Assembly (NCBI GenBank): GCA_947427205.1
Contig: CANEHB010000001.1
Span: 81,334-145,333 of the forward strand
Reading direction: 5' to 3'
Origin: an uncultured Clostridium sp.
Lineage (GTDB): Bacteria; Bacillota; Clostridia; TANB77; CAG-508
Length of the DNA stretch: 64,000 nt
The translations under genes and the position numbers were made by a program. The stretch's first letter is position 1, and each line of letters starts with the position of its first letter. The notes under the pieces were generated by a model. That model had not been told where the DNA came from. It worked only from the letters and a program-made list of their open reading frames with translations, and searched no databases. Shown piece by piece: positions 16,652-18,741 of this stretch.

Positions 16652-17251
16652 ATGAGAAAAGTATCAAAATTATTAGTTATGGCAATTGTAATTTTAGCTG
16701 TAGTTACAATGTCATTATATGTTAATGCAGGAACATCAGATTTAACAAATTATGTATTAAATATACATAATATTAATGGAATGGTATTCGAATTAACAAA
16801 TAGTCAAAAATCAGCAATCAAAGATTATATATCAACAAGTGTTACAGATGCACAAGCAGATGTAGCATATGCTAAAATAAAAGAAGCAGAAAAACTAGTA
16901 TCATCTACAGGTGTAACTAGAATGGAAAACTTAAGTAAAGATGTTAAAACAAAAGTAATTTATTTAGCAGTTGAAGCTGCAAATTCTGTAGGATTAACAT
17001 TAAATGTTAATACAAAGGATAATACATTTAAATTATATAATGGAAATAATGTATTAGCTTCTGGAAAAGCAGAATCTTTAGTATCATATCAACAAGCACC
17101 AGTTAAAGGAGAAAATCAAGCAGAAACAGCAGTATCAGGAACAAGAACTACTAAATTATTATATACAGGATCAAATTATACAGTATATGCATGTGTAGCT
17201 ATAGCAGTTGTTGCCGGAGTAGCAGTAGTAGTTGCTAAAAAGAAAGCTTAA
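16652..17251 (+). CDS. secreted surface protein, putative sortase substrate with a non-canonical sorting signal
   Basis: Signal peptide; C-terminal KLLYTG-SNYTVYACVAIAVVAGVAVVV-AKKKA (motif + hydrophobic span + basic tail); directly upstream of a sortase gene. Confidence 0.6.
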   Translation: MRKVSKLLVMAIVILAVVTMSLYVNAGTSDLTNYVLNIHNINGMVFELTNSQKSAIKDYISTSVTDAQADVAYAKIKEAEKLVSSTGVTRMENLSKDVKTKVIYLAVEAANSVGLTLNVNTKDNTFKLYNGNNVLASGKAESLVSYQQAPVKGENQAETAVSGTRTTKLLYTGSNYTVYACVAIAVVAGVAVVVAKKKA

Positions 17252-17257
17252 TAATTT

Positions 17258-17875
17258 ATGATAAAAAAAATATTAAAAGTAGTAAGAGCAGCTATATTAT
17301 CTATAATAGTTGCTCTTTTGTTTGTAGTAATCATAAGTATTACATTTAAAAAGATAACTAAAGAAAAATTTGAAATGGCAACATATCTTTTAAATATAAT
17401 TACAGTTGATAAAGAAAATGCTCAAACAATAACACCAGTTTTAGAAGGGAGTACATTAATAGACTATCCTACTTATGGAACAAATTATGCGACATTAAAA
17501 ATAGAAAGTGCAGAAATAGAGTTACCAATTTATTATGGAGCTGATTATACAATTTTGAAAAATGGTATTGCACATGATGAAAATTCATATTTTCCAGGAG
17601 AAGGTGGAAGTATTATTTTAGCAGGACATAATTTTAAAAAATTTTTGGGAAATCTTCCTAAAGCAGAAGAAGGTGATATAATAAATTTTAATACAACATA
17701 TGGAGATTTTAAATACAAGATATATGATACTAAAATAATAGGAGAAACAGAAGTAGAAAAAGTACCAATTCAAAATGAAAAAGAAATTTTAATGATATAT
17801 ACATGTTATCCAATTAACAATATAGGTCATGCAAGCAGAAGATATGTAGTATATGCAAATAGAGTTGAAGAATAG
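17258..17875 (+). CDS. sortase family transpeptidase
   Basis: 205 aa with an N-terminal TM; catalytic His (SIILAGHNF), the TLxTC-like Cys motif (ILMIYTCYP), and conserved Arg (SRRYVVYA). Confidence 0.75.
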   Translation: MIKKILKVVRAAILSIIVALLFVVIISITFKKITKEKFEMATYLLNIITVDKENAQTITPVLEGSTLIDYPTYGTNYATLKIESAEIELPIYYGADYTILKNGIAHDENSYFPGEGGSIILAGHNFKKFLGNLPKAEEGDIINFNTTYGDFKYKIYDTKIIGETEVEKVPIQNEKEILMIYTCYPINNIGHASRRYVVYANRVEE

Positions 17876-17883
17876 GAGAAAAA

Positions 17884-18741
17884 ATGAAATTATTAAAAAA
17901 TTTAATATGCATAATGTTATCATTTATATTAGTGTTAGTGATATTAATGTATATGCTATATTCTAATTTTGAAAGTAAATTTTTGAATAAAGATTATATT
18001 CTGTCAAAAATGAATGGAAATCAGTTTTATTTACAAATTGGTAGAGAAGTAGAAAGTGGTTTTGAAAAATACATATATCAATCAGGACTACCAGAAGAGA
18101 CAATAAAAAATCTATTTACAGAAGAAATAATAAAAAATGATGTAATAAGTATTGTAAATTGTGTTTATGGTGGAACAGAAATAAATTTAAGTAGCCAAAT
18201 AATTAGGAATAATTTAGATAATAAGATAGAACAATATTTACAATCTGAAGGTAAAAATGCTAATGAACAAGTAAGAGAGAATATAAATAAATTTGAAGAT
18301 TTAATTGTAAATGAATATAATAACAATATTAACATTTCAGAAGAATTATATACAGAAGCACATTCATTAATTGAAAAATTTAATGTTGTTGTAGAAAAAA
18401 TAGGTAATATGCCTATAATGATTATAGGCATATTTGTAGTATTAATTATTTTATTAAATATAAAAAATTTAGCATTAGCTTTAAATTTTTTATCCATATC
18501 AATTTTAGCAGTAGGAGTATTAATAAAGCTAGGTATTACAACTATATACTCTAATATTAATATAGATAATTTGCTTATATTGACGAACTCAATAAGTAAT
18601 TTAGTAATTAGTATAATAAAAGAAATAATATATGAATTTGATAAAATATCTACAACATGTGTAGTTTTAGGCGTTTTGGGAATAGCAATATATGCAATTT
18701 TTAAATCTTTAAAATCTGAAAAATCAATAAATAAATATTAA
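17884..18741 (+). CDS. hypothetical polytopic membrane protein, third gene of the sortase locus
   Basis: 285 aa; an N-terminal TM, a soluble middle domain and C-terminal TM segments; 9-bp spacing to the sortase gene. Confidence 0.5.
   Translation: MKLLKNLICIMLSFILVLVILMYMLYSNFESKFLNKDYILSKMNGNQFYLQIGREVESGFEKYIYQSGLPEETIKNLFTEEIIKNDVISIVNCVYGGTEINLSSQIIRNNLDNKIEQYLQSEGKNANEQVRENINKFEDLIVNEYNNNINISEELYTEAHSLIEKFNVVVEKIGNMPIMIIGIFVVLIILLNIKNLALALNFLSISILAVGVLIKLGITTIYSNINIDNLLILTNSISNLVISIIKEIIYEFDKISTTCVVLGVLGIAIYAIFKSLKSEKSINKY

Follow-up and report, generated by a model that had tools for sequence, protein, structure and literature searches.

Which sortase acts on a surface protein whose sorting signal is not of the LPXTG type, and is that enzyme dedicated to the protein? 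The question is raised by a three-gene locus of an uncultured Clostridium sp., located in a 64-kb stretch of contig CANEHB010000001.1 (positions 81,334 to 145,333 of the forward strand; G+C about 26%) that is referred to here as the window. Characterised sortases recognise a P-X-T core and about 90% of the signals carry Pro at P3, the exception being class E with Ala in that place, a preference attributed to a conserved Tyr in the β3/β4 loop (PMC5148588; the sortase classes are summarised in PMC8225981). At the locus of the window a secreted protein ends in a signal whose pentapeptide, LLYTG (P4 to P1'), has Leu at P3, and its gene is followed by those of a sortase and of a polytopic membrane protein. 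This trio is inherited as a unit among gut Clostridia, and the sortase probably is a dedicated, class-D-like enzyme that cleaves between T172 and G173 of a single cognate substrate, anchoring it in the wall.

The secreted protein and its sorting signal

The trio occupies positions 16652-18741 of the window on the plus strand, as three closely packed open reading frames (ORFs) coding for the secreted protein, the sortase and the membrane protein. The stop codon of the substrate gene is separated by 6 nt from the start of the sortase gene, and the latter by 8 nt from the membrane protein gene. A preliminary description of this DNA had proposed a three-gene sortase locus here, and every element was found at its place. 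The substrate does have the signal peptide and the sorting-signal architecture ascribed to it, while its length had to be corrected from 200 to 199 amino acids and its hydrophobic span from 21 to 22 residues; of the KLLYTG motif, LLYTG stands and the leading Lys, which is not conserved, has to be dropped, the element shared by the clade being L-x-Y-T-G. The third gene was rightly taken for that of a polytopic membrane protein, its AlphaFold2 model showing four membrane helices.

At the C-terminus of the substrate, T-K-L-L-Y-T-G leads into a stretch of 22 residues that carry no charge and are for the most part hydrophobic (SNYTVYACVAIAVVAGVAVVVA), and KKKA precedes the stop codon. Together with the signal peptide, predicted to end in ...YVNA at residue 26, this composes the tripartite arrangement of a sorting signal, in which an exported protein closes with a pentapeptide that has T-G as its last residues, with some 20 hydrophobic residues and, at its extreme end, with a basic tail. 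A search for other such signals, suggested for the whole genome, was made in the 64-kb window, where the substrate is the sole ORF bearing one. Ala26 is found in 72/72 orthologues, and the signal peptide has no Cys, so the substrate is not a lipoprotein. The mature protein contains a small α/β passenger domain, different from the Ig/CnaB fold and with no match to a known family or fold, and a low-complexity linker rich in Ser, Thr, Gly and Asn that precedes the motif. Among the closer homologues the signal peptide (MxKxSKLLVMAxVVLAVVTMSLxVNA) is better conserved than most of the mature domain, which hints at a role beyond generic Sec targeting.

Inheritance of the trio as a unit

One genome per species (185,579 species) was scanned with the sortase alignment and 243 related stretches were obtained; the counts given below come from the best 80 loci, and about 8.6 kb was seen per locus. 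All these loci come from gut Clostridia that are represented by metagenome-assembled genomes or by genomes of uncultured isolates (human, rabbit, mouse, chicken and ruminant samples), including Ca. Scatovivens and Ca. Merdicola (Ca., Candidatus), with sortase identities from 85% down to 45%. In 78/80 loci the ORF directly upstream of the sortase has a sorting signal at its end, the other two being one truncated locus and one without an ORF, and in nearly all of them its stop codon overlaps the sortase start or sits within a few nucleotides of it. When the ORFs were clustered, the sortase was present in all 80 loci, the membrane protein in 79 and the substrate in 77, against 26 for the commonest of the other neighbours; tblastn agrees with these figures. 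A hidden Markov model (HMM) of the passenger alone, built after removal of the signal peptide and the sorting signal, detects the upstream ORF across loci. Therefore, the substrate is an orthologous family co-inherited with the sortase and not a chance neighbour.

Four remote variants of the signal were traced to contigs, and each of them lies in the same trio: LPFTG (45% sortase identity), FAKTG (52%), IKPTG (28%) and RYTD (35%), with the membrane protein still recognisably homologous in the four. The trio is co-inherited as a unit while its flanks change, and it persists to 28% sortase identity.

Constraint and freedom in the sorting motif

L-Y-T-G is invariant in all 43 substrate homologues retrieved with the window protein, which extend down to 43% identity, and it adjoins a linker that is hypervariable in length and sequence; the K/R tail after the membrane segment is conserved too. 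In the alignment of 72 orthologues T172 and G173 are present in 72/72 sequences, L169 in 67 (93%) and Y171 in 65 (90%), and the other positions that reach at least 85% are Ala26, four scattered residues of the passenger, and Ala185, Ala188 and Ala191. The sorting motif is the most constrained element of the substrate. These data bear on whether the signal is processed at all, since the substrate could be an unprocessed, C-terminally membrane-anchored protein that keeps x-x-x-T-G for another reason, its sortase acting on distant targets. Motif presence alone is not proof of cleavage, because C. difficile CbpA carries NVQTG and yet SrtB did not cleave it in vitro (PMC4155245). However, the motif described here has the canonical spacing to the hydrophobic segment and the basic tail that follow it, it is the best conserved part of a protein whose adjoining linker is hypervariable, and in essentially every genome the substrate gene adjoins or overlaps that of the sortase, all of which makes an unprocessed protein highly improbable.

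The signal could be scored in 78 of the loci, where the motif is LAYTG in 31, LLYTG in 21, LVYTG in 17 and LTYTG in one, that is, L-x-Y-T-G in 70. The remaining eight comprise LAQTG and IKQTG (two each) and IKKTG, VKQTG, FANTG and FVSTG (one each), and none of the motifs tallied in these 78 loci has Pro at P3. A profile search of 1.8 billion cluster representatives enlarged the family to 308 members, and 129 of their signals were scored. Their consensus is (L/F/I/V)-x-x-T-G, with mostly Y or Q at P2 and with V, K, A, L or T at P3, Pro accounting for only about 5%; the Thr seen in 129/129 was a detection requirement of that scan, and the Gly at P1' is near-invariant, apart from a few x-Y-T-D variants. 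Hence P3, Leu in the window, is Val, Ala, Lys or Thr elsewhere in the family, and P2, which is normally free, is held to Tyr or Gln.

Members with Asp at P1' (P0396, P0402, P0414, P0430 and P0435) have x-Y-T-D or V-Q-T-D instead of x-x-T-G, and in at least one related locus such a homologue (L085:4001-4531) still lies inside a sortase trio; Asp would be an unusual residue at P1' of a sortase signal. Covariation between P3 and the sortase was also considered: positions close to the active site, among them 126 (His124+2) and 186 (Cys183+3), differ between LA-type and LL/LV-type loci, and the difference, fully confounded with phylogeny, was not used.

The usual models of anchor signals hardly register the window motif. 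Even with E allowed to reach 10, TIGR01167, the HMM for LPXTG anchors, gives no match to its tail, which scores 17.8 with Rumino_NPXTG (cutoff 23.5); PF00746 gives 16.2 (cutoff 20). Pro is missing from the second position of the motif, and by these models it does not qualify as an LPXTG-type signal. The LAYTG variant is borderline with TIGR01167 (16.3 versus a cutoff of 15.9) and overlaps formally with the LAXTG consensus of class E. Because of this overlap, and because LPFTG occurs in a few lineages, the trio is worded as a family with relaxed or different P3 recognition and not as an enzyme strictly requiring LLYTG. Full-text literature searches for LLYTG, LAYTG, LVYTG or LXYTG in a sortase context returned no relevant publication, those for non-canonical clostridial sortase motifs gave nothing relevant, and no publication describing the trio system was found.

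A sortase close to class D

The window sortase belongs to the sortase superfamily (PF04203, 8.8e-23 and 80.8 bits against a cutoff of 26.6; TIGR01076, 94.9 against 39.35). It consists of an N-terminal membrane anchor (residues ~9-31) and a compact catalytic domain in which His124 (AGHNF), Cys183 (IYTCYP) and Arg195 (RRYVV) follow one another in canonical order and spacing, align with the triad region of Protein Data Bank (PDB) entry 2LN7 and are invariant in 21 homologues. The preliminary description had recognised these same residues in a sortase of 205 amino acids starting 6 bp downstream of the substrate gene, as is confirmed here.

The window sortase and eight diverse relatives were compared with the NCBIfam class models. 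The class D models (NF033746 and NF058671) were the best for all nine, with 91-129 bits, always below their cutoffs of 140 and 165 (for the window sortase, 101.3 versus 165 and 104.7 versus 140). Lower scores were obtained with class C (NF033745, 60-88 bits versus a cutoff of 160), class E (NF033747, 39-60 versus 160) and class GN (35-54 versus a cutoff near 160), and no match to classes A, B or F was found at E up to 0.1 for the window sortase or 1e-5 for the eight relatives. A search of solved structures with the single sequence placed class C and class D at about the same distance; with the family profile the best hit was the class D SrtD of B. anthracis (2LN7, 2.5e-17), over the whole catalytic domain and across the short Cys-to-Arg segment, TCYPxxxIGxAxxRY. 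The structural features of class D are all present: the domain is compact, anchored once at the N-terminus and without a lid, and its β7/β8 segment is short.

The signal departs from the class. The window sequence LLYTGSNY is neither LPXTA(T/S) nor LPQTGS, and its Leu at P3 separates it from the class E signal LAXTG as well. In the β3/β4 loop, A-H106-D-E-N-S-Y111-F-P-G, His106 and Asp107 are invariant and position 111 is Tyr or Phe in the 21 homologues, a comparison made without structural superposition onto Tyr229 of SrtE1, the conserved residue at the S3 subsite of class E. The sortase is best described as a class-D-like sister family, failing the class D tests for score and signal. Clustering with class A, which the preliminary description had named, along with a lack of cleavage of the LLYTG peptide, as the outcome that would speak against its proposal, does not occur, class D being the nearest although below cutoff, and its suggestion that the sortase is dedicated to this substrate and recognises a new motif gains support, at the level of sequence, from the co-inheritance, the motif constraint and this placement outside class A.

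The equal distance of class C and class D in the single-sequence search has to be weighed together with the gene arrangement, as an island of substrate, sortase and accessory gene resembles pilus islands and the PDB matches to class C pilus sortases are then as good as those to class D. The trio could on this basis build a minimal fibre, in which the small protein would be polymerised head-to-tail via a lysine by a class C-like sortase and the membrane protein would be the platform or base. Nevertheless, the DP[WFY] lid is found in 0/74 family sortases, and these have no C-terminal anchor because only 7-14 residues follow the catalytic Arg. On the substrate side YPK occurs in 0/72 sequences, so that a YPKN pilin motif is lacking, no Lys of the mature domain reaches 85% conservation, and the passenger is a small α/β domain instead of an Ig/CnaB one. 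With the class C scores also far from their cutoff, a fibre is a very unlikely product of this locus.

The class D enzymes that serve as reference are B. anthracis SrtC/SrtD (2LN7), with the substrates BasH and BasI (LPNTA), and C. perfringens SrtD (PDB 4D70), whose signal is LPQTGS. The trio sortase resembles them in its best HMM and solved-structure matches, in its single N-terminal anchor, the lack of a lid and the short Cys-to-Arg spacing, and the systems also have in common spore-forming Firmicutes hosts and one or two dedicated substrates encoded alongside. The host of the window is a spore former, with GerA, SpoIVA and SleB-like genes near the trio. The differences are that the trio signal has no Pro at P3 and Gly instead of Ala at P1', that the scores stay below the class cutoffs, and that the trio includes an obligate four-helix membrane partner and is frequently linked to capsule loci, not to genes of sporulation. 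For C. perfringens SrtD the preferred signal is LPQTGS, and LAETG is left unprocessed (PMC4498605).

Class E (SrtE1/E2 of S. coelicolor, SrtF of Corynebacterium and SrtA of A. oris; LAXTG) is the only characterised class that naturally does without Pro at P3 (PMC5148588), and the LAYTG of 31/80 loci fits its consensus literally. However, the trio family lives in low-GC Clostridia and not in Actinobacteria, its class E scores are far below the cutoff, its P3 can be bulky or charged (Leu, Val, Lys) while P2 is held to Tyr or Gln, and class E enzymes are housekeeping sortases with many substrates. SrtB of C. difficile, which recognises (S/P)PXTG, offers a clostridial case of a non-LPXTG signal, and Val at P3 has a precedent in NVQTG, the disputed signal of CbpA, but SrtB is a class B enzyme, a class with no match in the trio family, and has no conserved gene trio.

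The membrane partner

The third protein of the trio gave an all-helical AlphaFold2 model (predicted local distance difference test, pLDDT, 87.6). In this model a first transmembrane helix (residues ~5-27) would be followed by a helical extracytoplasmic domain of about 150 amino acids and by three further transmembrane helices, and in our reading of the model and the positive-inside rule both termini would lie in the cytoplasm. No match to a known family or fold was found. A GFExYIYQSGLP motif is near-invariant in the extracytoplasmic domain. By co-conservation the protein would be an obligate partner of the sortase/substrate pair.

Proposed mode of action

In the mode of action that we consider likely, the precursor would be exported by the Sec pathway, would lose its signal peptide after VNA and would stay in the membrane through the hydrophobic span and the KKKA tail at its C-terminus. 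The sortase, with Cys183 as nucleophile assisted by His124 and Arg195, would then recognise L-x-Y-T-G and cleave between Thr172 and Gly173, forming a thioacyl intermediate. Recognition would depend on a hydrophobic P4, Tyr or Gln at P2, Thr at P1 and Gly at P1', with P3 left free. The intermediate would be resolved by an amine of a cell-wall precursor, most likely, by analogy with class D, the meso-diaminopimelate side chain of lipid II, and the passenger of about 125 residues would end up covalently bound to the wall on a short linker.

The freedom at P3 admits another interpretation, namely, that of a housekeeping sortase with relaxed P3 recognition that anchors many proteins, LPXTG proteins among them, and for which the L-x-Y-T-G protein is just the most tightly linked client. 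P3 does vary widely among the members of the family (V, K, A, L, T, P), SrtE1 of S. coelicolor cleaves both LAETG and LPETG (PMC5148588), and no second sortase is encoded within about 4 kb of any locus, save one weak match. Moreover, an unrelated secreted protein of 250-320 amino acids, whose signal is LPKTG, IPKTG or LPSTG and whose basic tail differs, is encoded directly upstream of the cognate substrate in seven loci (examples in Table 1), so that two kinds of sorting signal stand beside one sortase. On the other hand, the sortase shows strict one-to-one co-inheritance and translational coupling with one orthologous substrate in at least 80 species, no other protein of the 64-kb window has a sorting signal, and no housekeeping model of class A, E or F scores above cutoff. 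Pro is also avoided at P3 in about 95% of the substrate representatives, which is unexpected if Pro were equally good. A housekeeping role is thus rather unlikely.

Several points nevertheless weigh against a dedicated pair that anchors its protein in the wall. A window of 64 kb and about 8.6 kb per related locus cannot show that the substrate is the sole one or exclude another sortase in the genome, and the canonical signals upstream in seven loci, together with the LPFTG lineages, indicate that Pro at P3 may be acceptable to the sortase as well. That the bond between T and G is cleaved and the protein joined to peptidoglycan is inferred by analogy. Finally, capsule or polysaccharide genes, which adjoin the trio in more distant relatives, are found neither within the 64 kb of the window nor in its closest relatives, where the trio lies between efp and the gerA operon.

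Neighbouring genes and a possible link to glycopolymers

In 26/80 loci genes for a Wzz chain-length determinant, a CpsD-type P-loop tyrosine kinase (BY-kinase) and a CpsB phosphatase lie directly 3' of the membrane protein gene, on the same strand and mostly 9-20 nt after the trio; these loci fall within L036-L080 (e.g. L036:2966-5331). Capsule-type genes, sometimes with a gene of the LytR-CpsA-Psr (LCP) family, directly abut the trio also in 3/6 further loci (L083-L085), where the Wzz, kinase and CpsB genes again follow it; genes for a glycosyltransferase, Wzx and an LCP protein stand directly upstream in L083 and L084. Genes for Wzx flippase, CapD-like, GH25 and VanZ proteins recur near the trio too. 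The trio often belongs to a capsule or wall-polysaccharide locus, and this recurrent linkage points to a role of the anchored protein in the cell envelope or in connection with glycopolymers.

It could be asked whether the trio is instead a sortase system in its own right, with P3-independent recognition and an obligate polytopic partner, that couples a small wall protein to capsule or wall-glycopolymer assembly. This would be a doubtful conclusion at present, and it can be conceived in more than one way. One possibility is that the Ser/Thr/Gly-rich linker would be glycosylated by the neighbouring LCP/Wzx machinery before anchoring, as in the GspA-LcpA-SrtA pathway of A. oris, where GspA, a sortase substrate, receives its glycans from an LCP enzyme ahead of anchoring in the wall (PMC6381275). 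Alternatively, the membrane partner might provide or present an acceptor that is not canonical. The likeness to the A. oris pathway consists in a small sortase-anchored protein tied genetically to glycopolymer machinery and in the Ser/Thr/Gly/Asn-rich linker of the trio substrate; on the other side, this substrate has no sequence relation to GspA, and an LCP gene is adjacent in few loci and absent from the surroundings of the window trio. The parallel may be taken as a lead only.

The trio remains a variant of the well-known paradigm of sortase and sorting signal. Within it, the rules known for recognition by sortases would be extended by a widespread family in which P3 is Leu, Val, Lys or Ala and P2 is fixed as Tyr or Gln, and enzyme and motif could serve as an orthogonal enzyme/tag pair for protein ligation. 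LPXTG-based predictors miss L-x-Y-T-G, and inventories of surface proteins in a large uncultured gut clade are for that reason incomplete. The constant presence of the membrane partner, and the recurrence of the trio within capsule loci, suggest that in gut Clostridia, abundant although uncultured, anchoring by sortase and the assembly of glycopolymers are connected in a way not described so far.

Features of the locus and minor observations

The coordinates of the elements are collected in Table 1. ATG 16652 was preferred over the upstream TTG 16619 as start codon of the substrate gene because of the placement of AAGGAG and because all homologues begin at the equivalent Met. The hairpin upstream probably terminates the preceding gene and marks the 5' boundary of the trio. 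Matches to the sigma-70 consensus are frequent in the AT-rich DNA of the window (48 observed versus 34.6 expected). The genes next after the trio have convergent orientation, and the trio is a self-contained unit that is probably co-transcribed.

Table 1. Coordinates of the features of the trio (window numbering) and of upstream proteins in related loci (numbering of each locus)
Feature	Position	Strand	Remarks
Hairpin, palindromic, GC-containing, then T-run	16510..16534	+	scored on the minus strand; TTTTCCAATTTT 3' of the stem on the plus strand
Promoter candidate, sigma-70-like TTGAAA-18-TATAAT	16578..16607	+	consensus match only, 11/12
Ribosome-binding site AAGGAG	16640..16645	+	6 nt 5' of ATG 16652
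Substrate gene, 199 aa	16652..17251	+	signal peptide, ~125-aa alpha/beta passenger, ~20-aa variable linker, sorting signal
Signal peptide, Sec-type, residues 1-26 (...VNA|G)	16652..16729	+	predicted; conserved across the family
Sorting motif L169-L-Y-T-G173	17156..17170	+	codons tta tta tat aca gga; predicted scissile bond T172/G173
Hydrophobic membrane-retention segment (22 residues) and cationic tail KKKA	17171..17248	+	
Sortase gene, 205 aa	17258..17875	+	codons His124 17627-17629, Cys183 17804-17806, Arg195 17840-17842
Membrane protein gene, 285 aa	17884..18741	+	own GGAG
Unrelated canonical-signal protein upstream of LAYTG substrate	L036:123-869, L061:2381-3280, L062:2411-3367, L078:2610-3386		examples among 7 loci

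The flanks of the window trio, with genes for a prepilin peptidase, an Xaa-Pro peptidase and efp upstream and the gerA operon downstream, are common to its closest relatives only. A 154-aa ORF upstream (15973-16437) was considered as a fourth component and rejected, as it occurs in 1/80 loci only. A sporulation link through the neighbouring gerA and spoIVA was likewise set aside, the adjacency being restricted to close relatives and ger genes adjoining about 10/80 loci. In the most distant trios, at 28% sortase identity, a response regulator and a histidine kinase are encoded directly upstream (L087:586-2270 and L088:413-2069), an arrangement that we take to resemble that of srtC-sctR-sctS in B. 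anthracis.

The gerA-type germinant receptor operon of the window (18961-22846, minus strand) has its GerAC split into ORFs of 288 and 81 aa and its GerAA into overlapping ORFs of 155, 320 and 146 aa. Identical split gene calls are found in two independent contigs of NCBI metagenome-assembled genomes, so that the splits may be real pseudogenisation and not assembly error. A hydrophobic ORF of 55 aa (18724-18891, minus strand) converges on the membrane protein gene, with which it shares the last 18 nt of that gene; since it is conserved in 10 related loci (tblastn), it probably represents a real gene for a small membrane protein. The sole Rfam match in the window is a tRNA-Trp (CCA) at 15731-15805 on the minus strand, located in the ORF-poor gap between efp and the 154-aa ORF.

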